A stretch of 64,000 bases of DNA, from the sequence record OK272470.1; one strand, 5' to 3'. Every line of letters begins with the position of its first letter. Positions within the stretch are counted from its first letter, which is position 1. A program made the position numbers and the translations under genes. Shown here one piece after another: positions 1,249 to 62,132 of this stretch. The notes below the pieces were generated by a model, which did not search any database, was not told the origin of the DNA, and was given only the letters and a program-made list of their open reading frames with translations. Origin of the DNA: Escherichia phage JLBYU50.

Positions 1249-1884
1249 ATGGGAATACCATTTGATTTAAAACTTGATGGTTCTAACGATTTAGTAATGG
1301 TAGATGGTGATTTAACACTAACCACAACTAAAAGTGAAATTGCAGCACAGACGCTTGGAATAACACTTAGAACTTTCCGTGGAGAATGGTTCCTCAATTC
1401 TAATTTTGGGGTTCCATATCTGCAAGAGATTATTGGTGTTGCCAAGAAGAAAGAGATTGTTGATCGCATTTTCTTATCAACTATCGCAAGTAATGTTTAT
1501 ATAGATAATATTAATTCCTACACATCCTCTTATGATAGAGATGATAGGTATTACTCAATGAACGTTACTGTTACAGTTGGTGAACAAGTTGTTAGTGCTC
1601 TATTCAGTACACAGCCGTCTGAAGAATATATCTATCCAGAAGCTGGTGACGATAATGCAGCAATCACTTGTGAAGCATTTGAAATTGTTGAATCTGCAAA
1701 TAGACTCTATCGCTTTATTAACATTGTTGGTCTTCCTAAAGATACTTATTCTACTTGGTGGAATGAGTGGTCTAACGAGGCATTGCTTGAAAAATACCTT
1801 GTTAACGAAGCCAATAAAGGTCTTGCAACCAATTACAACTATGCTATAACAGCAACAATGGGAGCTACAAATAATAATGGCTGA
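1249..1884 (+). CDS. baseplate protein (gp25/W-like family candidate)
   Basis: N-terminal pattern DLKLDGSNDLVMVDGDLTL...RGEWFLNSNFGVPY typical of small baseplate wedge proteins; start abuts previous stop. Confidence 0.45.
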   Translation: MGIPFDLKLDGSNDLVMVDGDLTLTTTKSEIAAQTLGITLRTFRGEWFLNSNFGVPYLQEIIGVAKKKEIVDRIFLSTIASNVYIDNINSYTSSYDRDDRYYSMNVTVTVGEQVVSALFSTQPSEEYIYPEAGDDNAAITCEAFEIVESANRLYRFINIVGLPKDTYSTWWNEWSNEALLEKYLVNEANKGLATNYNYAITATMGATNNNG

Positions 1885-2350
1885 TTTAACTACAATCAAG
1901 GTGTCTGATCTACCTGTAACAACATCTGTTTCAGACACAGATTATTTTGTAACAGATCAATCAGGCATCACTAAGAAAACATCATTACGTGTTCTTCTTG
2001 CGGGTGCTGGTGTTACACGAAATCGTCTTTCTGCAAGGGGTACTGTTACAAATACCCTAGCTTTAGATATTAGCACGGCAGAGTATTTCTCTGCCACTTT
2101 ATCTAGTCCAACTTGCAGTATTTCATTTAGTAATGTTCCAGTTACAACTAACATTGTTCAAAACTTTACACTATCCCTACGTCAAGGCAGTGGAGCAAAT
2201 AAAGTAACGTGGCCTCAATCTGTTAAATGGAGTTTTGGTCGCGCTCCTGTTTTGAGTTATAAACAGGGAGCTACAGATATTTTTGAATTTGTTAGTTATG
2301 ATAATGGAGCTACCTGGATAGGTAGTTTAGTGATGGCAGGAGTGATTTAA
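1877..2350 (+). CDS. structural protein, unknown
   Basis: ATGA-type overlap with flanking genes, co-oriented in structural module. Confidence 0.5.
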   Translation: MADLTTIKVSDLPVTTSVSDTDYFVTDQSGITKKTSLRVLLAGAGVTRNRLSARGTVTNTLALDISTAEYFSATLSSPTCSISFSNVPVTTNIVQNFTLSLRQGSGANKVTWPQSVKWSFGRAPVLSYKQGATDIFEFVSYDNGATWIGSLVMAGVI

Positions 2351-5226
2351 TGTCAAGAATTAAGCACAGAATTGACAATGTTTTTCAACTGATCGATGGA
2401 CATATTCAGTTCTTAGATCGTAATACAGGTTTAACTGTAGATCCTACAGTGCAACACTATGTATTAAACCCACAAAACGTTCTAGCTAATAACAGACACT
2501 TTATAAACTGGACTGCTCAAGAAGGGCAACCAAACGGGGATGCTACAACAGAAGGTCAATCCGTGCTTATTCTTGGTTGCGCTTATGCATACCTGGCTTC
2601 CGGCGATACAAAGTATTTAGACTCTGCTAAAAAATATTGGCAAGCCTATATAGATTACTTCTTTGGTGGTCAACCTATCCCAGATCCGCCAGCAAAGTAT
2701 CGCCCTAACTGGATTATTAACGGTAAAGAACCACGTCTTGCACATTATCCTCTTACAGATGATGGCTACCCTACACACGGAGGTTTTAAGGGTAGCTTAA
2801 TGACGTGGACTAACGGTAGAACAGTTATTCCTCATGGTGCTCCACATTGGGGAGAATACCTTGACAAAGCATGGTTTGCTTTTAATGGTAATCTAGGATG
2901 GAACTCTGTAAACGCTACAGTATATGCTGTTAATGCAGATGGTACAACAGATTGGTCTAAGAAGGGAGATCAATGGGATGTTGATTGGATCATTGATCGT
3001 CTAGGACGTAAAGTTGATTGGGATGGAAATATCTTAGAAGAAGGTTTTCCAACATCTCAATACGGAACAGTTCAACTAAAAAATACTTCTGTAAATGGTA
3101 CATATAAATTTAACTACGCGACTTGTAACCCTGTTGAACACGGTGGTTATTTAATGGAGCGTAACACTATGTGGCATAACAGACCAGTTAACGTTCCGGT
3201 AGAAATGGGCTTTCAGGATAATGCGTCAGATGCCGAAACTTGGTGGTGTGATGCTAATTACCTGATGTACCAAATTACAGGGGAAAGAAAATATTGGCTA
3301 TGCTGGCAGTCTTCACTGTTAGTGTGTCAAGATTATTCAAACATTGATATGTTTGATAAATTCTTCCGTAAGTCTACATATGCAACTATTCCGTTTACAG
3401 ATGGCATCTCTTACGATTATTCGTATCCATCTACAGCAATACCTAAATATTCAAGAGATACTTTAGGTTATATTGTTATTAGACAAGATGTTGCTGCTCA
3501 AACAACATTAGAACAGCAAGCCATTTGGTTTAAAGTTGATCAGAACTCTAAGTTACGAGTCCAGTTTCAAGGTGTAGATGACGCAGGACAGGGTATTCTT
3601 TTCCGTCCAGAGTTGGAATTAAGTAAGACCAAAGATGAAAATAACACAGTAACTTACCGCTGTGGCTTACCACTAGGTACAGCTAATATGACAAGCATGG
3701 ATATTCCACTATCCAGCTTTATGAGAAGTACCCCTCCTAGTGGTGGAACATATATTATCGCAGATCCGCGAATTATTGTTGACTGGGGTGACAATACTGT
3801 GGTACAATATAAGTATGTAACAGGTATTGCTGGAACTAATAATGACCAGATTGTTACTGCATCAATGGATACGGATGGTGGTATCACTGTTGGTTTTTGG
3901 TTAACTCCTACATCAAAAGCTAATGTTAAGTCTATTACATATAGAACATATGAAGATGACTTTAACATGACTATCACGGATGCTCAAGGTTGGAGATGGT
4001 GGGTTATGCTTCCTAAAACACAAGGAGCATGGAGTACGAAGACTTTATCAGCTTCTGATTTTAAGTTAAGTGCTTACCAGCCTAATCATCCAGATACAGA
4101 TCCTAAACCTTCAGCAATAAATCTTACTGCGGTAGATCAGGTAAATTTAGTTCTTGATACGGCTCCTGTAAATGGTTTAACAGGAACAATAGATTTCTAT
4201 TGTATTAACGATGTACCTGAAAGATATTCGTCATCTTCTGGTGATGATTATACCATGTACTTCCGTATTACTGTACAGGCTTCAAGTCCTCATACTGCTA
4301 AATTAGGTGATTGTACTATTATTGACTATAAATTAAATAGTCTTAATTACACACCAGGAATAATTCCATTCTCTAATATCAGTGACCCAAACACTGCATT
4401 ATACGATGGATGGCGTGGTATTCCATACCCAGGATACCAGTATCCTTCCTTATACTGTTTCGCAGGTAGGGATATTGATTGGACACGTTTAAACAACAGT
4501 ATTGATTTCTTGTATGATGCTCAAATGTGGTTTTATAACACGTTTGATCCTGTGATGCCTGGGCCTATGGCACAAGCATATGTGTGGGATCGTTGGGATG
4601 CAAGAAAATACGGTGAACCTAATACGTTTACAATGAAACACTGGAATGAAAAAGCGTGGGATGGTTATGAAGCTCGTGCATTCTACTGTGCTTGTCATGC
4701 TGTATACGAACTTGTACAAAGAGGAGAAACACCTCCTGAAAAACTAGTAACTGTTTGTAAAAATTGGATCAACTACCTTAAATGGTTCCAAGACAATAAT
4801 GATGGAAGAACACCAACTATCTTTAACCCAGATGGTACAGTTCTTGCTCCTATAGATGACTTTACTAGTCATATGTCTGCACTGTTTATGGCGGGTTGTT
4901 CAATCATGGGCTTGGCAGGTTATGATTCACAAATTCCAAACATTGGTATTGTAGCAGACAGATGTTTTGATCTGATTCAGCAAAACTATATTGTGCTTTC
5001 CCCTAACCATCCGATGAATGGTTCCTGGAGTGTTGCACCACGCCCAGATTCAGATAACGGAATGTTCTTTGGTTTCCATGCTGGAGAACTATTACGTGGT
5101 TTTGGTTTATATGCCTTGTATCGTAAACTAAACCCTCAAAACGCTTTACCAATTTTGGATAATAGTAACATACCAACACTAACTGTTCTAACTATGAATG
5201 ATATTAGTGTTGATGTAACCAAATAA
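2350..5226 (+). CDS. large virion protein, putative tail fibre/baseplate-associated carbohydrate-active protein
   Basis: 958-aa ORF, Trp/Tyr/Asp-rich, translationally coupled to neighbours. Confidence 0.55.
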   Translation: MSRIKHRIDNVFQLIDGHIQFLDRNTGLTVDPTVQHYVLNPQNVLANNRHFINWTAQEGQPNGDATTEGQSVLILGCAYAYLASGDTKYLDSAKKYWQAYIDYFFGGQPIPDPPAKYRPNWIINGKEPRLAHYPLTDDGYPTHGGFKGSLMTWTNGRTVIPHGAPHWGEYLDKAWFAFNGNLGWNSVNATVYAVNADGTTDWSKKGDQWDVDWIIDRLGRKVDWDGNILEEGFPTSQYGTVQLKNTSVNGTYKFNYATCNPVEHGGYLMERNTMWHNRPVNVPVEMGFQDNASDAETWWCDANYLMYQITGERKYWLCWQSSLLVCQDYSNIDMFDKFFRKSTYATIPFTDGISYDYSYPSTAIPKYSRDTLGYIVIRQDVAAQTTLEQQAIWFKVDQNSKLRVQFQGVDDAGQGILFRPELELSKTKDENNTVTYRCGLPLGTANMTSMDIPLSSFMRSTPPSGGTYIIADPRIIVDWGDNTVVQYKYVTGIAGTNNDQIVTASMDTDGGITVGFWLTPTSKANVKSITYRTYEDDFNMTITDAQGWRWWVMLPKTQGAWSTKTLSASDFKLSAYQPNHPDTDPKPSAINLTAVDQVNLVLDTAPVNGLTGTIDFYCINDVPERYSSSSGDDYTMYFRITVQASSPHTAKLGDCTIIDYKLNSLNYTPGIIPFSNISDPNTALYDGWRGIPYPGYQYPSLYCFAGRDIDWTRLNNSIDFLYDAQMWFYNTFDPVMPGPMAQAYVWDRWDARKYGEPNTFTMKHWNEKAWDGYEARAFYCACHAVYELVQRGETPPEKLVTVCKNWINYLKWFQDNNDGRTPTIFNPDGTVLAPIDDFTSHMSALFMAGCSIMGLAGYDSQIPNIGIVADRCFDLIQQNYIVLSPNHPMNGSWSVAPRPDSDNGMFFGFHAGELLRGFGLYALYRKLNPQNALPILDNSNIPTLTVLTMNDISVDVTK

Positions 5227-55936: not shown

Positions 55937-56227
55937 TCACATTAAAACACGTTTTGCATTGCTTGGTGCATTGTCGAACATGTTTATCACTTTGTCAAGT
56001 TTGTGTATTAACTCGTTCGTAATGTTCCACTCTTTGTATGATCTCCATTGTTTCTTATTCTCACCTACCTGGTGTAAAACTTTGATGGGTGCATTCAAAC
56101 GTACATTGCGTTCTTTGTCCTCTTCAAAAGAGGCTAACCATTTTTCGTTATGTCCATGAACAGCAATAATAATGCCAAAACCATCAAAAGTTTCTGTAAT
56201 ATTCTTAGTTGCTAGTGTGATGTTCAT
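55937..56227 (-). CDS. hypothetical protein (first gene of - strand block)
   Basis: 96-aa ORF adjacent to divergent promoter region. Confidence 0.45.
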   Translation of the reverse strand: MNITLATKNITETFDGFGIIIAVHGHNEKWLASFEEDKERNVRLNAPIKVLHQVGENKKQWRSYKEWNITNELIHKLDKVINMFDNAPSNAKRVLM

Positions 56228-56286
56228 ATCTAACCTCTTTTGTTACGATACACACAGAGTACCAGAAATTAATTTCAGATCAAGTA

Positions 56287-56315
56287 TTGACATACTGTTT
56301 TATTGTGCTAATCTT
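56287..56315 (+). promoter_or_regulatory. sigma70-like promoter in divergent intergenic region
   Basis: TTGACA at 56287-56292, about 16-17 nt spacer, TAATCT -10-like element. Confidence 0.45.
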
Positions 56316-56898: not shown

Positions 56899-57149
56899 TG
56901 TTAAGTATCAAACCTAAAATGATAACAGCAGATGAAGCAGACTTTATTTTCAAATGTGGACATGTATGGAGAGAATTCACAAAAGGGAATGAAGTGGTGG
57001 TTGTTGTCGAACACAAGATATCTATCCAGGATCTGTTTGGACAATATGTTGATGTTATTAAATTAGGTATTGACAAGGGTTTAGTTGAGGTGTTAACATT
57101 AGATCAAGTTGAAGCAGAGCACCTCGATAAAGTAGTGGTTGAATTTTAA
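56898..57149 (+). CDS. hypothetical protein
   Basis: 83-aa ORF, TAATG overlap with upstream gene. Confidence 0.45.
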   Translation: MLSIKPKMITADEADFIFKCGHVWREFTKGNEVVVVVEHKISIQDLFGQYVDVIKLGIDKGLVEVLTLDQVEAEHLDKVVVEF

Positions 57150-57169
57150 AATACAGACGGGAGAAAGGT

Positions 57170-57343
57170 ATGAGTTTCTTTGTTACAGTATTTATGGCTA
57201 TCTGGATTGTAGTCTCACTCGTTCTTTTCCTGGTGGGTTGTCTGGAAGAGATTAAGAAAGCGGTTATTTGCGGTTTCTTTGGCTTTATTATCTCTCCTGC
57301 CTGGATGTGGTTCTTCATTATGATTGGTTTCCTTAAAAGGTAA
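57170..57343 (+). CDS. small hydrophobic membrane protein (57 aa, not in ORF track)
   Basis: RBS gggagaaagg before ATG at 57170; two predicted TM helices. Confidence 0.4.
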   Translation: MSFFVTVFMAIWIVVSLVLFLVGCLEEIKKAVICGFFGFIISPAWMWFFIMIGFLKR

Positions 57344-57357
57344 GTGAGGAATAAAGA

Positions 57358-57795
57358 ATGAGTAAAACAAACGCAATCGCAGATAAAGCAACTGATGTAC
57401 TTCTGAACATGGTTAACGTCACTATTCAAACAATGAGTGATGTTGTGGAGTTTGGAAAACAACAAATTCCAGAAGTAATCCATCAATTATTAGTGTGGAA
57501 AGCAGTATCCGCAGGTTTATGGCAACTTTTTGGTATTTGCTTTATGTTTATTACTTTTATTGCTGTGCGGAACCTCGTAAAAGCAATTAAAGATAAAGAA
57601 TGCCTGTGGTCACGAGATCGCTATGGTGAAGTATCTGCTTTACCTATTGTTGGTCTTGTTGTCTGTGCTTTCTTTTTCTTTTTAGGATTTGTTATTTTCT
57701 TTTCGAATTTTGATTGGCTAAAAATCATTATTGCACCAAAAGTGTATCTGATTGAATTTGCTGCTGATTTAATTCGTTCATCTCAACAAAAATAA
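57358..57795 (+). CDS. membrane protein
   Basis: 145 aa with two long hydrophobic helices. Confidence 0.5.
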   Translation: MSKTNAIADKATDVLLNMVNVTIQTMSDVVEFGKQQIPEVIHQLLVWKAVSAGLWQLFGICFMFITFIAVRNLVKAIKDKECLWSRDRYGEVSALPIVGLVVCAFFFFLGFVIFFSNFDWLKIIIAPKVYLIEFAADLIRSSQQK

Positions 57796-57806
57796 AAGGG
57801 GTTAAA

Positions 57807-58934
57807 ATGAAATACACGATTTATGGTGATATTGTAAGTGTAAATAAAGATATGGGCGTGGAATCTAACTATCTTCCACCTGGATTCTATACTGTTAGTC
57901 GTGATCCCCTTGGCAATTATTTTTTAAGCCGTGGTAATCTGACAGGTGTACCGGATGTTTTGTATGGTGAAACAGAAAAACGAGCAAATCACGTTATCCG
58001 TACATTCCATCGCCGGAGTGCACAAGGTAAAAACACAGGCTTGCTTCTGACAGGAACTAAGGGCAGTGGTAAAACTATGTTAGCCAAACTCATTAGTCGT
58101 GACCTTGTAGAAGAAGGTATTCCAACTATTATGGTTACTCAAGCCTACAGTGATGCTAATTTCATTGAACTTATTAGCAAGATCACCGACAAAGCAGTGA
58201 TTATTTTTGACGAGTTTGATAAAGTGTATGAGAAGAAACAAGATCAAGAAGCACTTCTCACTTTGTTAGATGGTACTGGCAGTGGTAATAAACTGTTTAT
58301 TCTGACTAAAAACAGTGGTTTTATTTCTGAATTCTTTTTAAATCGTCCTAGTCGTGTGTTTTATAATTTTAATTATGATAAAATCTCACTAGAAACTATG
58401 ATTGACTATTTAGATAAAAACCTAGATAACAAAGCACACTTTGATAATTTCCAAAGACTTTGGGATGTAAGTTTAGAGTTGTCCTTTGATGTGATCCAAG
58501 GTATAGTAGAAGAACTTAATTTCTACCCTGATTTATCCTTTAAAGAATGCATCTCTATGATGGGCGTTTCTTTAGGTGGTGGTAATAAATGGGATATCAG
58601 CAGTGTTGTTATTAATGGGAAACTTCAGAAAGTTAGCTGGGTATCTAGTTGGCATAACTTTACACCTGCAATCTTTTTAGGTGGCTCGTGCACACTAGAC
58701 GTGTACTTGTCATCTCCAAGTGATGCAGACTCTAAAGAAGCCCTTGCTAATAGCTCTTACGTGGTTTTTGATGATGAAGGAGATGCTCGAATTCCATTGA
58801 ATGCGACAAAAATGAAAGCAGATCTTATTACAGGCGGTAAAATCGTTGTGTTTAGTGATGATCCAGAAGATTCTTTCCGTATTGTTCTGGAGCCAACTAT
58901 CACCAATGGTGCAACTTTGGCAAGTGTGTTTTAA
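57807..58934 (+). CDS. AAA+ ATPase (paralog B)
   Basis: Walker A GTKGSGKT; Walker B IIFDEFDK; sensor-1 FILTKN; Arg-finger NRPSRVFY; collinear with paralog A across about 300 aa. Confidence 0.65.
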   Translation: MKYTIYGDIVSVNKDMGVESNYLPPGFYTVSRDPLGNYFLSRGNLTGVPDVLYGETEKRANHVIRTFHRRSAQGKNTGLLLTGTKGSGKTMLAKLISRDLVEEGIPTIMVTQAYSDANFIELISKITDKAVIIFDEFDKVYEKKQDQEALLTLLDGTGSGNKLFILTKNSGFISEFFLNRPSRVFYNFNYDKISLETMIDYLDKNLDNKAHFDNFQRLWDVSLELSFDVIQGIVEELNFYPDLSFKECISMMGVSLGGGNKWDISSVVINGKLQKVSWVSSWHNFTPAIFLGGSCTLDVYLSSPSDADSKEALANSSYVVFDDEGDARIPLNATKMKADLITGGKIVVFSDDPEDSFRIVLEPTITNGATLASVF

Positions 58935-58949
58935 GTAAGCCAGCAAATA

Positions 58950-58975
58950 AAAACCCGCTTCGGCGGGTTTTCTTG
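58950..58975 (+). terminator. rho-independent terminator
   Basis: acccgc-ttcg-gcgggt hairpin followed by TTTTCTTG. Confidence 0.75.
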
Positions 58976-59008
58976 TATTAATACCAGATTTAATAAAAGG
59001 AGTAGTAG

Positions 59009-60001
59009 ATGGGAACACCAAAATCATGGGAACAATATAAAGAAGAATTAACACCTCTTGCTAAAAATCGCAATATTCAAATCCTGGGTTATGTTGGTGA
59101 ATGGAAAGGGAATAAAACAAAACTTGATTTGTTGTGTCATTGTGGGTATAGATGGCAAAGTACAGCTATTACGGACTTTAAACGTGGTGGTGGTTGCCCC
59201 AGTTGTAATTTAGATAGCTTACGCAAACGTATAATCATCCCTGACGATCAACACATACAAGATTTCATGAATACTGGCGCTTTCCAACCAGGAACCATCT
59301 TCATCAATACAGGGGAACGTACTGGAAATAGTGACAGTATTTGGTGTATAAAATGTCCTATTTGCTCATACGACGAATATGTACAAGCTGGAGTATGTGA
59401 TGGTAAGTTTTATTCTACAAAGAGTAGTCTTAAAAACGGGAGTCTCGCTTGTCGTTGTTCTACACGTTATGTGTTTAGCGATCAGCAGTTAACATACCGC
59501 ATGAGAAAGGAGTTGCAGAAAAAAGATTTGATTTTTATTGAATGGGTAGGCAAACCTTCTGTAAGATTAGGTAAGTTTAAATATCTTTGTCTTGTACATG
59601 GGGAGCAGATAGGGAGTGCTAGTAACTTATTAAGCCACGGTCGAGGTTGTCCTATGTGTGCTGGTCATAGTCAGCAGCAGTTATATATTAATATTGTTAA
59701 GGATGATAATATTATAGTTGCTCTTAAGTTTGGTATAGCTAAAGATAGTGATAGGCGATTAAACATTCAAAATAGCCGTAATCTGTTTTTTATGGAACGT
59801 ATTTGTTTATATGATTTTAGCACAGTGAAACAGTGTAAGGCTGCTGAAAGAGCTATAAAGAAAAAATTAAAAACTGGTATTTTAACAGCAAGAGAGTTGA
59901 AAGACGGTCATACAGAAACAGTAAGTGTTTCTGATTTGGAAAATCTTCAAAAAATTATTACACAATATGGTGGCAAATTAGTATATAGTAAGGAGGTGTA
60001 A
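59009..60001 (+). CDS. zinc-ribbon repeat protein with C-terminal T5orf172 (GIY-YIG-like) domain
   Basis: Three Cys modules (CHCGYRWQ...GCPSCN; CPICSYDEY...CRCSTRY; CLVHGEQ...GCPMCAG); C-terminal VALKFGIAKDSDRRLNIQNSRNLFF resembles T5orf172. Confidence 0.5.
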   Translation: MGTPKSWEQYKEELTPLAKNRNIQILGYVGEWKGNKTKLDLLCHCGYRWQSTAITDFKRGGGCPSCNLDSLRKRIIIPDDQHIQDFMNTGAFQPGTIFINTGERTGNSDSIWCIKCPICSYDEYVQAGVCDGKFYSTKSSLKNGSLACRCSTRYVFSDQQLTYRMRKELQKKDLIFIEWVGKPSVRLGKFKYLCLVHGEQIGSASNLLSHGRGCPMCAGHSQQQLYINIVKDDNIIVALKFGIAKDSDRRLNIQNSRNLFFMERICLYDFSTVKQCKAAERAIKKKLKTGILTARELKDGHTETVSVSDLENLQKIITQYGGKLVYSKEV

Positions 60002-60553
60002 ATGCGGATTACTGATAAGTATGTGTTCTTCTTTTCAGCAAAAGATGAATTTAGCAACTGGTATCTATCATCTTTTATTGAACCTTTAGCTCCCAAGTAT
60101 AATAATTCTATTACAAGTTCTGTTGAATTTACTTGTGTGGAACAATATATGATGTGGAGAAAAGCATGTTTATTTTATGATTACAACATTGCATCTTCTA
60201 TTTTAACCGGAGATCTAAGATATACAGGAGAAAAAGAACAAGCATATTATAAGCGACTAGGCAGATTAGTTAAAGATTATGATGAAGATACCTGGACTTC
60301 TTTACGGGAGAAGATTGTCAAACGTGGTTTGTATCTTAAATACACACAAAATGAAGATCTCAAAAATAAACTTATAGCCTACGCAGATAAGGAGTTCGTA
60401 GAGGCAAGCCCTTATGATTCTATTTATGGTATCAAAATGGGGATGTGGGATCGGGACGTGGAAAATAAGGATTGTTGGAAAGGACAAAATCTTTTAGGAA
60501 AATGGCATACAGACCTTGCTGTTTATCTAAAAGCACAATCTGATATTTCCTGA
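60002..60553 (+). CDS. NADAR (YbiA-like) domain protein
   Basis: Collinear with E. coli YbiA: FSNWY, VEQYMMWRKA, RGLYLKYTQNEDLKNKLIAY, FVEASPYDSIYG, GQNLLGKWH; ATG overlaps upstream stop. Confidence 0.75.
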   Translation: MRITDKYVFFFSAKDEFSNWYLSSFIEPLAPKYNNSITSSVEFTCVEQYMMWRKACLFYDYNIASSILTGDLRYTGEKEQAYYKRLGRLVKDYDEDTWTSLREKIVKRGLYLKYTQNEDLKNKLIAYADKEFVEASPYDSIYGIKMGMWDRDVENKDCWKGQNLLGKWHTDLAVYLKAQSDIS

Positions 60554-60772
60554 TATTTTGAAAATTTTTATTTTTATAAAAAGGGGTGTGGGTTTCATGT
60601 ACGGAAATTCACCCTCTGCACAGTATATCCAGAGTAAGTAGTATTCTATACCCTGTTAATAAAGTATTTAATTTGTTTGTTGGACTATGGTATCTGATCT
60701 TTAAAAGGCATACTATCTCTTAACTACTACTTATAACAGAACAGTAAAATCATTTTTATAAAAAGTACAAAA

Positions 60773-60969
60773 TTATTTAAAGTTTTTACAGATTTTTGGG
60801 TACAAATTTTGAAAATGAAAAGTTCAAGTTTGGTCAAAATTATTTAAAGTTTTTGTACGTATTTCTATTCAGATTTTGAAAATGAAAACTTCAATTTTTT
60901 AAAAATTCCCCAGTTTATTTAAAGTTTTTTTGCCTTTTTCCGTAGAAAAATCAAAAATGAAAAGTTCAA
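60773..60969. repeat. three tandem copies of a composite element (ttatttaaagttttt - 21 nt - TTGAAaatgaaaagTTCAA)
   Basis: Unit A at 60773, 60840, 60915; palindromic unit B at 60809, 60876, 60951; A-to-B spacing 36 nt in each copy. Confidence 0.7.
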
Positions 60970-60992
60970 TTTCGTGTTTTTATAGGTGTGTT

Positions 60993-61050
60993 AATGAGAA
61001 TCATTTTCGTTTGTAAATGAGAATCATTAGCAAATGAGAATTTTCTCATT
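60993..61050. repeat. three copies of palindromic site AATGA-gaa-TCATT
   Basis: aatgagaatcatt at 60993-61005 and 61016-61028; extended palindrome aatgagaattttctcatt at 61033-61050. Confidence 0.65.
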
Positions 61051-61286
61051 TAGAGAATAACGCGCAGGGGTGGTGTTTGTCTCGCGCTCCCGTGTCCCCT
61101 CGCCATACAATAAGAATAGCATAACCAACAACAAAAGCAAGCGATTATTTTTATCTTTACATTTCTTTACAAATTTATTTTGGACGAGCTACCGGCGATC
61201 AACCTTCCAACCAGTGCCCCCTGGTATGTTAGCCCCGCCTTTACGCCGTGGGGGTGGCGTTTCCTCTTCTGTATGTAAAACAGTAT

Positions 61287-61320
61287 AAGCCCGATCCCTG
61301 GGCTTGTCAATATTATTTTT
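61287..61320. terminator. stem-loop aagccc-gatccct-gggctt with T-run on + strand
   Basis: Hairpin followed by gtcaatattattttttgtttt on + strand; overlaps 3' end of - strand ORF 61313..61579. Confidence 0.35.
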
Positions 61321-61579
61321 TGTTTTCTTGCCAGGATAGGACACCTAACCAAAAATACATGTCGCCCCGCGCCCCTGGCGGGATCTTGCTTTCCCCGCCG
61401 CCACTGCAAGCCCATAGATAACCATTTACGAACGTATCAAAGTGATCTATCTCTTCCACCTTATGATCGCCCAGGTTGAGAACGGTTTCAACCTTTAAGC
61501 CCGTTGCGCTTGCTACCTGGTGCACCGTGCCGCCTTGCCAGCCCAATGAGTGCATGAGATGTAAAGGAGTATTTGTCAT
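61313..61579 (-). CDS. hypothetical protein encoded in GC-rich islet
   Basis: 88-aa ORF, RBS aaaggg; own sigma70-like promoter; GC content visibly higher than phage average. Confidence 0.45.
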   Translation of the reverse strand: MTNTPLHLMHSLGWQGGTVHQVASATGLKVETVLNLGDHKVEEIDHFDTFVNGYLWACSGGGESKIPPGARGDMYFWLGVLSWQENKK

Positions 61580-61626
61580 GGTATCGCCCTTTCTTTGATG
61601 TGCGCCCTGGTTGGCGCGGTAGAAAG

Positions 61627-61655
61627 ATAATAGCCGTTTCCTTTATAGATAGCAA
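61627..61655 (-). promoter_or_regulatory. sigma70-like promoter for ORF 61313..61579
   Basis: On - strand TTGCTA, 17-nt spacer, TATTAT. Confidence 0.45.
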
Positions 61656-61691
61656 GCAAAAAAGAAATGAAAAAAAGATTAAAAAAAATGG

Positions 61692-61720
61692 TTGACGTTC
61701 CTCACCTGGTAGCGTAGTAT
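61692..61720 (+). promoter_or_regulatory. sigma70-like early promoter
   Basis: TTGACG, 17-nt spacer, TAGTAT, upstream A-tract. Confidence 0.55.
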
Positions 61721-61773
61721 TCATCTTGTCGAGGGGGCAATAGTGCCGCTCATAACAGAAGAGAGAAATAATC

Positions 61774-62046
61774 ATGGCATCATATAGCGCATCAATGATC
61801 GTAACGGGTATCACTGGTAAACCTATGCGCGGTGGCGGATCTTTCGCTAACATCAACATTGACGGGCGTTTATCCCTGGACGCAGCGATCACAGTGGCAC
61901 GGGAAACATTTAAAAAAGAATGTAATTTCAATAAACAAGATTATCTCGGTTTCGCTATTGAAAAAACCGCGCGCTTTGTGGATTATAAAAGCCCGAAAAT
62001 GATCGACACTACACTAAAAGCGCAAGATGTAGCGTTTTTGCTTTAA
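61774..62046 (+). CDS. early protein, unknown
   Basis: 90-aa ORF with RBS gagaga; downstream of promoter. Confidence 0.45.
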   Translation: MASYSASMIVTGITGKPMRGGGSFANINIDGRLSLDAAITVARETFKKECNFNKQDYLGFAIEKTARFVDYKSPKMIDTTLKAQDVAFLL

Positions 62047-62049
62047 GGT

Positions 62050-62077
62050 TTGACACTGAAAAATAATTGGGTAATAT
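62050..62077 (+). promoter_or_regulatory. sigma70-like early promoter
   Basis: TTGACA, 16-nt spacer, TAATAT. Confidence 0.55.
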
Positions 62078-62132
62078 ATACGACATAAGGCGGGGAAATG
62101 GTTTCCCGCCAAATCAAAGAAAGGGTAATGCA

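Follow-up and report, generated by a model that had tools for sequence, protein, structure and literature searches.

The locus considered here poses two questions: which activity is encoded by a gene whose product is annotated as 'hypothetical protein' in the majority of phi92-like phages, and how alleles of this gene have come to be exchanged between phages whose flanking genes hardly differ. A stretch of 64,000 nucleotides from Escherichia phage JLBYU50 (sequence record OK272470.1), referred to below as the window, was used for the analysis. The gene product is probably a free-standing enzyme of the homing-endonuclease type from the T5orf172 branch of the GIY-YIG superfamily, by which a probable activity and a name can be given to the gene. 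It is an ordinary member of a published nuclease class, with modules that are swapped and lost among related phages.

The nuclease gene and its surroundings

The reading frame named in the earlier note was recovered exactly, and an exact-sequence look-up identified the product as GenBank UGL62076.1, a 'putative endonuclease' of Escherichia phage JLBYU50 (Table 1). It is a free-standing ORF between an AAA ATPase gene and a NADAR gene, and each of these neighbours shows 97-99% identity within the genus. Throughout the phi92-like phages (Stephanstirmvirinae) it has a single fixed position immediately behind the AAA ATPase gene, and its synteny in two genera, Justusliebigvirus and Phapecoctavirus, fits long-term retention and possibly domestication.

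A terminator-like hairpin (nine pairs, five of them G-C, with a loop of 4 nt, according to the terminator scan) lies between the ATPase and nuclease genes, in an intergenic region with 93-100% identity among relatives, and the phi92 annotation has a ribosome-binding site at the position equivalent to the Shine-Dalgarno-like sequence of the nuclease gene. No convincing promoter was found between the hairpin and the nuclease ATG, and sigma-70-like promoters were not in excess in the region (15 found, 15.5 expected). At the 3' end, the TAA stop codon (59999-60001) abuts the ATG of the NADAR gene (60002..60553; Pfam NADAR, 2.5e-36), the Shine-Dalgarno sequence of which was matched by an AGGAG ribosome-binding site at the same place in the phi92 annotation. 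No tRNA and no paralogue of the nuclease (tblastn) was found within the window, and Rfam gave no match in 58800-62100. With a GC content of 0.35-0.40, the nuclease gene resembles its surroundings and thus gives no compositional hint of a foreign origin.

Table 1. Positions of the features in the window (aa, residues of the nuclease protein).
Feature	Position	Strand	Description and basis
Intrinsic-terminator-like hairpin	58950..58981	+	AAAACCCGC-TTCG-GCGGGTTTT, then T-rich tail; terminator scan
Shine-Dalgarno-like AAAGGAG	58996..59002	+	6 nt 5' of nuclease ATG; direct sequence reading
Nuclease gene	59009..60001	+	Complete, ATG start, 330 aa; ORF list, Pfam and PHROG matches
Zinc module 1, A-type	59009..59233	+	aa 1-75; CapR PF21817 41.8 bits alone; putative ligands C43, C45, C63, C66
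Remaining copy of 14-bp direct repeat	59099..59112	+	GAATGGAAAGGGAA, sole copy left; DNA alignment with KKP_3264
Divergence island, module-coding part	59100..59700	+	18-45% mismatches per 100 nt to most relatives; flanks 0-4%
Zinc module 2, B-type, canonical CapR homology domain	59234..59479	+	aa 76-157; CapR 53.6 bits alone
Zinc module 3, A-type	59480..59674	+	aa 158-222; CapR 27.8 bits alone; putative ligands C194, H197, C214, C217
T5orf172 (GIY-YIG superfamily) domain	59675..59998	+	aa 223-330; Y226, K240-F-G242-I243, R250, E280, G300-x-T-E303-T304
Shine-Dalgarno of NADAR gene	59990..59998	+	AAGGAGGTG, inside last nuclease codons (…SKEV*); direct reading
Interval with right-hand switch of closest relative	60038..60172	+	KKP_3264-like to VivaForever-identical; mismatch counts

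Zinc-type modules and T5orf172 domain

All three N-terminal modules, scored as separate fragments, exceeded the gathering cutoff of the Pfam CapR model (PF21817, 24.2 bits), and the whole protein reached 103.6 bits in three stretches. Module 1 gave an additional weak match to DUF4379 'treble clef'. Module 2 was aligned with positions 2-67 of the 67 in the CapR profile and was predicted with a pLDDT of 85.8 when modelled alone; its cysteines are arranged as C116-x2-C119, 28 aa and C148-x-C150, with C130 as a fifth conserved cysteine. The ligand order of modules 1 and 3 is C-x1-2-[C/H], 16-17 aa, C-P-x-C. These two modules resemble one another (local alignment, z=4.4, a score reached by 0 of 1000 shuffles), and the pairwise similarity of module 2 to module 1 or 3 was not significant (z 1.2-1.6). 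The putative ligands C63, C66, C194, H197, C214 and C217 were present in 41 of 41 homologues and C43 in 40, C45 was replaced by His in most relatives, and C116, C119, C148 and C150 were found in 37-38 of the 41, the remaining sequences being mostly those without module 2. Conservation of the putative ligands is far above chance level. The modules are predicted from their sequences to bind zinc, and they may well bind DNA in a sequence-specific manner that depends on the zinc, as suggested by the invariance of the ligands and by analogy with EMSA of Cys-to-Ser variants of CapR (PMC8096241).

Three similar Cys4 zinc ribbons, each followed by a GxG turn, had been described in the earlier note. 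Three modules of zinc type are indeed present, but module 2 differs from the others in ligand order and module 3 is of the Cys3His type with an invariant H197. The G-x-G (G60-G-G62 and G211-R-G213, respectively) directly precedes the second ligand pair in modules 1 and 3, and module 2 is without it. The name zinc ribbon is not supported, as the modules did not show the pair of beta-hairpin zinc knuckles in a three-stranded ribbon, with likeness in structure or profile to known zinc ribbons, that characterises this fold. To our knowledge, there is no solved structure of a CapR-type module.

CapR is the capsid repressor of the PLE satellites of Vibrio cholerae, and DNA binding by it depends on its four cysteines (PMC8096241). 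Module 2 covers the Pfam model over the whole length and has the C-x2-C ... C-x-C pattern of CapR save for the spacing of the cysteine pairs, which is 24-26 aa in CapR (Netter 2021) and 28 aa here, whereas modules 1 and 3 represent the variant C-x1-2-[C/H]...16-17 aa...C-x2-C. CapR acts as a repressor with one module and carries no nuclease domain, in contrast to the three modules and intact T5orf172 domain of the present protein. The same layout, with repeated CapR-type modules at the N-terminus and T5orf172 at the C-terminus, is found in Gp165, Gp174, Gp121, Gp53 and Gp130 of phage ICP1; such ICP1 proteins with CapR homology and T5orf172 have been reported as putative homing endonucleases (HEGs) (Netter 2021, PMC8096241; Barth 2023, PMC10448857). 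By BLASTP, the similarity to Gp165 (6e-33, 31% identity over aa 21-256) extends across all modules, although the Gp165 module aligned with module 1 has lost the C-x2-C pair.

The C-terminal region, in which the earlier note had seen a resemblance to T5orf172, scored 21.4 bits with PF10544 in the full protein and 24.4 bits as aa 219-330 alone (profile positions 10-98 of 101), and thus lay narrowly, though consistently, above the gathering cutoff of 20 bits. Among 41 family members, the CapR model matched 41, T5orf172 22 and the sister model MUG113 6 (E<=0.01), and PHROG 681 'endonuclease' matched the protein at 6.5e-65. The Pfam GIY-YIG model itself did not match the protein, nor was the nuclease matched in NCBIfam or PADLOC. 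Y226, K240, G242, I243, R250, E280 and E303 were conserved in 41 of 41 homologues, among them the Tyr, Arg and Glu (Y226, R250 and E280) expected to be catalytic. The AF2 model (pLDDT 91.6) has the beta-beta-alpha-beta-alpha topology in aa 224-286, so the predicted core fold is that of the GIY-YIG type, and the domain is under purifying selection (dN/dS 0.10-0.30). The T5orf172 and PHROG matches and the invariant Tyr, Arg and Glu support the earlier description of the protein as DNA-binding or nuclease-like and similar to homing endonucleases.

E280 was aligned with E180 of Odn (E=0.11, not significant alone), and K240-F-G and R250 with Y17-V-G and R27 of I-TevI, respectively (hhalign of the family profile, E=0.21, not significant). 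The I-TevI alignment was used as a consistency check only; the catalytic-domain sequence used for it agrees with the published numbering Y6/Y17/R27/E75/N90. A sequence search of the PDB with the family profile returned only a spurious match (E=0.24), and Foldseek with the full model against the PDB returned nothing at E<=0.001. SLX1 was matched by Foldseek only at E of about 1, and faint dsRBD-like matches were not trusted. SLX1 and HIGLE are structure-specific GIY-YIG nucleases of eukaryotic DNA repair with a RING/PHD partner domain, their likeness (14-16% sequence identity) is at the level of the fold only, and they have no homology to the zinc modules. Odn is a T5orf172 nuclease which, when purified, cleaves DNA in vitro and is inactivated by E180A (PMC8263062). 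Metal-dependent cleavage of DNA has been shown for Odn (PMC8263062) and, by analogy, would be expected of the present protein.

Module number, divergent alleles and exchange of the gene

Homologues carry three to six modules, and their lengths are quantised at ~330, 400, 467 and 562 aa, which corresponds to [A]1-4-B-A architectures with A-B-A in the window protein and the maximum of six modules in the 562-aa homologue; a parallel is given by the repeated DNA-binding domains described in ICP1 (PMC10448857). In the protein alignment, the window allele equals that of Serratia phage KKP_3264 minus exactly one 67-aa module. The corresponding 201-bp in-frame deletion falls within a 14-bp repeat, the copies of which stand at gene positions 91-104 and 292-305 in KKP_3264. 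The module was lost from the window allele by deletion across this direct repeat, just as gp174* of ICP1 lost one module in frame via intragenic repeats (PMC10448857). An apparent 'second copy' of the gene in phages alia, muut and ALITA, each with two places in the tblastn search, proved in alia to consist of extra modules of one longer gene.

Divergence among the relatives is concentrated in the module-coding part, where dS is 0.6-2.6, compared with 0.08-0.23 for T5orf172 and 0.05-0.12 for the ATPase and NADAR genes. Classical positive selection was rejected as the main cause of the module divergence because dN/dS of the modules (0.13-0.73) does not reach 1 and dS approaches saturation, a pattern that points to old alleles joined by recombination.

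Exchange of the gene was followed in nine genomes. The 'mod2+3' distance matrix was unaligned for indel pairs, so that only near-identical pairs were read and values above 40% were disregarded. The flanks of the window are closest to those of VivaForever (0.6% and 0.5% mismatches), and the gene is the KKP_3264 allele (0-0.2%). VivaForever in turn carries the PHB05 allele (0-0.9%), although the flanks of these two phages differ by 1.8-2.0%. Mismatches between the window and VivaForever rise from 58960 on and fall to 0 in 60173-61029, and a single mismatch to KKP_3264 was counted in 59099-60090. The exchanged tract therefore extends over about 58950-60172, with the hairpin roughly at its left edge. 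The whole nuclease gene has been swapped between genomes that are otherwise nearest neighbours, and such horizontal movement with short co-converted flanks and with breakpoints of recombination at the gene borders is compatible with homing, though it is not proof of it.

Proposed homing and its alternatives

The domain identities, fold, residue conservation, module deletion, divergence island and allele swap described above are best joined in a homing-type reading. The three tandem CapR-type modules, placed like beads before the catalytic domain, would most likely bind an extended DNA site, and the T5orf172 domain would most likely cut nearby DNA by GIY-YIG chemistry, with Y226, R250 and E280 as the putative equivalents of Y6, R27 and E75 of I-TevI, respectively. 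During co-infection the nuclease would cut genomes with a different allele, and in repair templated by the cutter genome the gene and 60-170 nt on either side of it would be copied into the genome that had been cut, which would explain why the whole gene is the unit of horizontal exchange. The DNA-recognition array would evolve through cassette exchange and through gain or loss of whole modules. In this reading, cleavage would be the driving force of the allele exchange.

By tblastn, homologues were found in 397 phage records at 729 places, including phage T5 and the 'putative homing endonuclease' genes of ICP1. In both the putative HEGs of ICP1 and the present family, the module number varies and the genes lie at boundaries of genetic exchange. 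The present family differs in that it belongs to phi92-like Stephanstirmvirinae of Enterobacteria, another lineage with another host, in that one locus holds many highly divergent alleles with no empty site in 133 records, and in that up to six modules are found. With I-TevI and the T4 Seg proteins it shares the 'beads on a string' arrangement, in which a GIY-YIG-type domain is tethered to DNA-binding units including a zinc finger, and the occurrence as free-standing genes between conserved phage genes; the homologue of the T4-like Krischvirus sits between the genes for the ssDNA-binding protein and frd. The nuclease is N-terminal in I-TevI and C-terminal here, the second motif reads K-F-G here and not Y-I-G, and DNA would be bound by the repeated zinc modules in place of a helix-turn-helix.

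Several observations weigh against homing. When the two flanks were joined and used as a query, no single place covered at least 80% of it in the 133 phage records with the flanks, none of which were contiguous; no empty site was thus found in these records, and the classical presence/absence signature of active homing is missing. The synteny in two genera points the same way, conserved flanks together with ordinary homologous recombination could swap alleles without cleavage, and the T5orf172 score is barely over the cutoff, with non-significant alignments to Odn and I-TevI.

The same fixed locus, kept across two genera without an empty site, would also be expected of a domesticated, Odn-like nuclease that benefits the phage, no longer homes, and cuts a changing opponent, for instance a phage satellite, another phage in competition or some element of the host, its array diversifying so as to follow the target. 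This reading, which we consider unlikely, gains from the invariant catalytic residues, from purifying selection on nuclease and modules, and from a hypervariable modular recognition array as in an arms race. It has a precedent in Odn (ICP1 Gp88), which destroys PLE satellites (PMC8263062), and a role as nucleases against satellites has been suggested for coliphage T5orf172/RepA_N proteins (PMC10448857). The T5orf172 domain is common to Odn and the present protein, which can be aligned at the K-[FV]-G, Arg and Glu motifs. For DNA binding, however, Odn has a RepA_N domain that was copied from the satellite it attacks, whereas CapR-type zinc modules take this place here, as in the putative HEGs of ICP1; moreover, some ICP1 isolates carry Odn and others do not, alternating with CRISPR-Cas. 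No candidate target element was identified, and a whole-gene swap with short flanks is what homing or gene conversion predicts, although it is also compatible with domestication.

A more specific form of the homing-type reading, judged quite unlikely, is a long-lived system of 'allelic homing', by which a nuclease fixed in all genomes of a phage subfamily would persist. The array of each allele would recognise, and the nuclease cut, the module-coding or nearby DNA of rival alleles, so that alleles would replace one another in co-infection, and new specificities would arise by swap or deletion of ~67-aa modules, each reading its own sub-site. If this were true, the alleles of the window and KKP_3264, with three and four modules respectively, which differ by a single module and hardly in any other respect, would offer a natural experiment on a modular, possibly programmable, protein-DNA recognition code, and the anti-DarTG1 NADAR gene could hitch-hike on conversion tracts. 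With this allele pair and the available BASEL phages Bas60-62, module-wise recognition and E280-dependent allele drive are testable in E. coli.

The homing-type reading remains the preferred one, and its wider value is modest: it provides a clean, well-sampled coliphage case of the situation that Barth et al. reported for ICP1, with a nuclease gene at a boundary of genetic exchange, an old, divergent and selectively maintained recognition cassette, and a module count altered by microhomology-mediated deletion.

An improbable alternative is a DNA-binding regulator without cleavage, similar to CapR or to I-TevI as a repressor, in which the modules would bind a phage promoter and T5orf172 would be vestigial or structural. 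CapR is indeed a repressor derived from a T5orf172 HEG, with zinc-finger cysteines on which its binding to DNA depends (PMC8096241), I-TevI also represses its own expression (discussed in PMC10448857), and the gene stands after a strong terminator and before an anti-defence gene that could be expressed in a coupled manner with it. CapR, however, has no nuclease domain, whereas the full T5orf172 domain is kept here with Y226, R250, E280 and E303 in 41 of 41 homologues; the low dN/dS of this domain is unexpected for a vestige, and an array dS>1 between phages with 98-99% identical flanks is unexpected for binding to a conserved promoter.

A functional pair with NADAR, in which, for example, the nuclease would process ADP-ribosylated DNA that NADAR repairs or would form a complex with it, is very improbable, and this partnership, which the earlier note had drawn from the ATG-stop coupling, is largely refuted. 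The junction itself is real: stop codon and ATG abut in every Justusliebigvirus locus examined, the ribosome-binding site of NADAR lies within the last nuclease codons, and both genes are 3' of the same terminator. It is confined to Justusliebigvirus, however, as in Phapecoctavirus, its sister genus, two small ORFs stand between the nuclease gene and NADAR, and no NADAR gene lies next to the homologues of Klebsiella phage KB57 (Mydovirus), Krischvirus JEP8 and ICP1. The recognition array varies freely, whereas the identity of NADAR remains at 97-99%, so there is no co-variation of the two. The orthologous AdfN^Bas60, alone in E. coli, neutralises DarT1 and rescues three unrelated phages (PMC11825919), an additional phage factor not being needed according to its authors (PMC11825919).

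Domain architecture of the zinc-module protein

The open reading frame was confirmed, with an ATG at 59009, a TAA at 59999-60001 and a product of 330 amino acids. GenBank UGL62076.1, "putative endonuclease" of Escherichia phage JLBYU50, is the exact product and lies on two contigs, so the gene is already loosely annotated; in most relatives the label is "hypothetical protein" or "endonuclease". The region 57800-60600 was matched by 62 phage records, the top one being Serratia phage KKP_3264 (99.0%) and the others mostly Escherichia phages of the genus Justusliebigvirus (about 92%). This genus belongs to the Stephanstirmvirinae and comprises phi92-like phages of ~148 kb.

By Pfam, the CapR homology domain (PF21817) was detected on three stretches of the protein (E=6.5e-30) and T5orf172 (PF10544) in the full protein at 21.4 bits (cutoff 20), and PHROG 681 "endonuclease" was matched at 6.5e-65. 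The protein was also split into four fragments (three modules and the C-terminal part), each of which was scored separately. The modules reached 41.8, 53.6 and 27.8 bits, respectively, all above the CapR cutoff of 24.2, and the C-terminal fragment alone passed for T5orf172 with 24.4 bits. The T5orf172-like C-terminal region claimed from the sequence alone was thus borne out by HMM search, and the passing scores show that the three modules, with metal binding predicted, and the T5orf172 domain are real. Among the aligned homologues, CapR was matched in 41 of 41 and T5orf172 in 22 of 41.

The earlier note had described three similar Cys4 zinc ribbons, each followed by a GxG turn. Their number stands, and modules 1 and 3 are similar (z=4.4; score reached by 0 of 1000 shuffles), both with the ligand order C-x1-2-[C/H] ... 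C-P-x-C. Module 2 differs, with the canonical CapR order C-x2-C ... 28 aa ... C-x-C, a conserved fifth cysteine and a kinship to the other two at the profile level only, and module 3, in which H197 is invariant, is of the Cys3His type. G-x-G was found before the second ligand pair, in modules 1 and 3 only. The ribbon label was given up as wrong; in the AlphaFold2 model (41-sequence alignment; pLDDT 91.6) each module is a helix and a beta-hairpin closing in the first knuckle, followed by the second knuckle 16-28 residues on; no solved representative of this fold was found. Truncated homologues were seen on phage-sized contigs (P0041, 263 aa; P0030, 246 aa). P0041 has CapR domains only, with no T5orf172 match on record, which suggests that the nuclease part is sometimes lost; such loss would be the route to a CapR-like DNA-binding protein.

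Predicted nuclease domain and published precedents

The C-terminal domain was predicted to have a beta-beta-alpha-beta-alpha order, as in GIY-YIG nucleases; neither Foldseek alone nor PDB sequence search was informative. Y226, K240, G242, I243, R250, Q254, E280, G300, E303 and T304 are invariant among 41 homologues (down to 25% identity), and a dN/dS of 0.10-0.30 indicates purifying selection on the domain. Odn (ICP1 Gp88), a T5orf172 nuclease that has been purified, no longer cleaves either in vitro or in vivo when it carries E180A, a change at the equivalent of I-TevI E75 (PMC8263062). By profile alignment, E180, K-V-G and R148 of Odn fall on E280, K240-F-G and R250, respectively, and Y17-V-G ... 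R27 of I-TevI on K240-F-G ... R250; the alignments, individually non-significant, agree with the domain topology, which places E280 in helix alpha2. The lack of a T5orf172 match and of conserved catalytic residues had been named as evidence against a nuclease-like or homing-endonuclease-like DNA-binding protein. The match was obtained and the conserved residues are present (Y226, R250 and E280 being invariant), so this reading is supported, with the activity predicted.

CapR, the capsid repressor of Vibrio cholerae PLE satellites, has been described as a DNA-binding domain domesticated from putative T5orf172 homing endonucleases of ICP1, and its DNA binding needs the C-x2-C ... C-x-C cysteines (PMC8096241). 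According to Barth et al. 2023, T5orf172 homing endonuclease genes (HEGs) regularly bear repeated CapR, DUF723 or DUF4397 zinc-finger domains and sit at genetic-exchange boundaries, recombination between intragenic repeats deletes or duplicates modules (e.g. ICP1 gp174*), and bioinformatics alone cannot separate homing from domestication (PMC10448857). The protein studied here is directly homologous to ICP1 Gp165 (BLASTP 6e-33, aa 21-256), and the family was found by tblastn at 729 places in 397 phage records, including ICP1, T5, jumbo phages, Vequintavirinae and T4-like phages. The architecture is known; the new element is a previously unstudied carrier in phi92-like coliphages. In the T4-like Krischvirus JEP8 (MT764208.1), a 541-aa homologue lies at 1820-3445, flanked by frd and the gene for the ssDNA-binding protein. 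The T4 gene 32 neighbourhood holds the free-standing GIY-YIG gene segG, so this would be an independent case of an HEG-prone locus.

Contiguous flanks, as expected of an empty site, were found in 0 of 133 records matching a joined-flank query, and in Phapecoctavirus (ESCO5, nieznany) the homologue likewise directly follows the ATPase gene. The presence/absence pattern that classically marks an active HEG was not seen, and mainly for this reason a domesticated, Odn-like role is kept as a serious rival to homing. The recognition of a T5orf172 nuclease with repeated zinc modules for DNA binding was correct, both functions being predicted.

Module number, divergence and allele exchange

The closest protein is that of KKP_3264 (397 aa), and the window allele is the same minus exactly 67 aa (one A-type module), by a 201-bp in-frame deletion. 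The junction falls within an exact 14-bp direct repeat (GAATGGAAAGGGAA) found in both KKP_3264 modules, its 5' side matching repeat 1 and its 3' side repeat 2. Outside the repeat these modules are diverged, which rules out a recent duplication of the window form as the origin of the four-module form, and the deletion is judged to be the derived state. Family protein lengths are quantised (about 325-338, 390-432, 465-477 and 562 aa), matching the architectures [A]1-4-B-A-T5orf172; more distant members include B-A-B-A variants. Since alleles with three modules are also seen on a very different allele background, that of the 92CQ and EmilieFrey type, module number has changed more than once.

Mismatches per 100 nt against seven relatives were 0-4% in the ATPase gene, 18-45% in the modules (59100-59700), 1-5% in the T5orf172 domain and 0-5% in NADAR. 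Codon-based dS for the modules was 0.6-2.6, against 0.08-0.23 for the nuclease domain and 0.05-0.12 for the genes on either side. The high dS, together with a module dN/dS of 0.13-0.73, argues that the array is neither decaying nor simply fast-evolving in place; we infer old recognition alleles, kept by selection, within a backbone that is young and homogeneous. Potential homology arms flank the array: the intergenic region and the ~25 conserved N-terminal codons at one end, the nuclease domain at the other.

Nearest relatives were compared among nine genomes. Both flanks are closest to VivaForever (mismatches 0.6% in ATPase and 0.5% in NADAR); despite this, the gene is the KKP_3264 allele (0-0.2%), with 1 mismatch in 59099-60090 and flanks differing by 0.9-2.4%. 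VivaForever and PHB05 share an allele (0-0.9%) with flanks 1.8-2.0% different. Mismatches to VivaForever numbered 15 in 57000-58950, 13 in 58960-59098, 161 in 59100-59700, 20 in 59700-60172 and 0 in 60173-61029, so the exchanged unit comprises the gene, an upstream portion of roughly 60 nt that starts at the terminator, and no more than 170 nt on the downstream side. Gene conversion driven by double-strand breaks would be expected to leave such a pattern; it could equally come from ordinary recombination in the conserved flanks. Module deletion, divergence island and allele swap are good examples of known principles, not new ones.

NADAR neighbour, surrounding features and host labels

NADAR has 98.4% DNA identity to the Bas60 (PaulScherrer) orthologue, AdfN^Bas60. 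The latter was shown by experiment to be an anti-DarTG1 counter-defence enzyme, a guanine-specific DNA ADP-ribosylglycohydrolase, which when expressed alone neutralised the DarT1 toxin and rescued three unrelated phages from DarTG1, and it was concluded to require no further phage factor (PMC11825919). The stop|ATG junction between the nuclease gene and NADAR is conserved in Justusliebigvirus. Two small ORFs intervene in Phapecoctavirus, and no NADAR gene adjoins the homologues of Mydovirus KB57, Krischvirus JEP8 and ICP1. For these reasons, and given the solo activity of AdfN^Bas60, the junction is no evidence of the joint biochemical function proposed earlier; it reflects the packing of genes in an operon, where translational coupling and, in evolution, hitch-hiking on conversion tracts may also play a part. 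NADAR labels are misleading in several relatives ("GTP cyclohydrolase II" in ESCO5, "YbiA-like N-glycosidase").

Features of the nuclease locus and its surroundings
Feature	Coordinates	Remarks
Strand switch	56227-56290	minus-strand ORFs end ~56227; plus-strand run (ATPase, nuclease, NADAR) begins ~56287; likely divergent promoter region (predicted)
AAA ATPase gene	57807-58934	PHROG 2376
Strong terminator-like hairpin	58950-58971	with T-rich tail; between ATPase and nuclease genes
Nuclease gene	59009-60001	plus strand
NADAR Shine-Dalgarno AAGGAGGTG	59990-59998	inside last nuclease codons; conserved in Justusliebigvirus
NADAR gene	60002-60553	
Stretch without long ORF	60554-61770	~1.2 kb, directly after NADAR
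Three imperfect direct repeats	60752-60972	about 70-79 nt, 71-72% identity; very AT-rich (GC 0.23)
17-23-nt repeats	60984-61040	ends AATGAGAA
GC-rich block	61100-61700	GC 0.46-0.51; after AATGAGAA repeats

No promoter stands out between the hairpin and the ATG, promoter-like matches in the region being at chance level. The ATPase protein is almost invariant genus-wide (pN 0.000-0.001 over 375 codons; dS 0.04-0.11); it is labelled "FtsH-like protease" or "ATPase or Zn metalloprotease" in relatives, and only an AAA domain was detected (Pfam 1.5e-09), with no protease domain seen. The stretch after NADAR gave no Rfam match, inverted repeats of at least 14 nt were absent from 60500-61800, and "repeat_region" features are annotated in the corresponding stretch of alia and muut; it could be an origin or regulatory region.

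KKP_3264 (OK210077.1), the closest relative across the locus, is labelled a Serratia fonticola phage, and the exact protein is from an Escherichia phage, which suggests either a broad host range spanning genera or a very recent change of host among phages that are nearly identical. Several "UNVERIFIED" GenBank records named Campylobacter phage A145, A110a and A150 (including MG065639.1; stated host C. jejuni) contain Justusliebigvirus genomes of ~146 kb that share about 92% identity with this coliphage locus, and their host assignment therefore looks doubtful.
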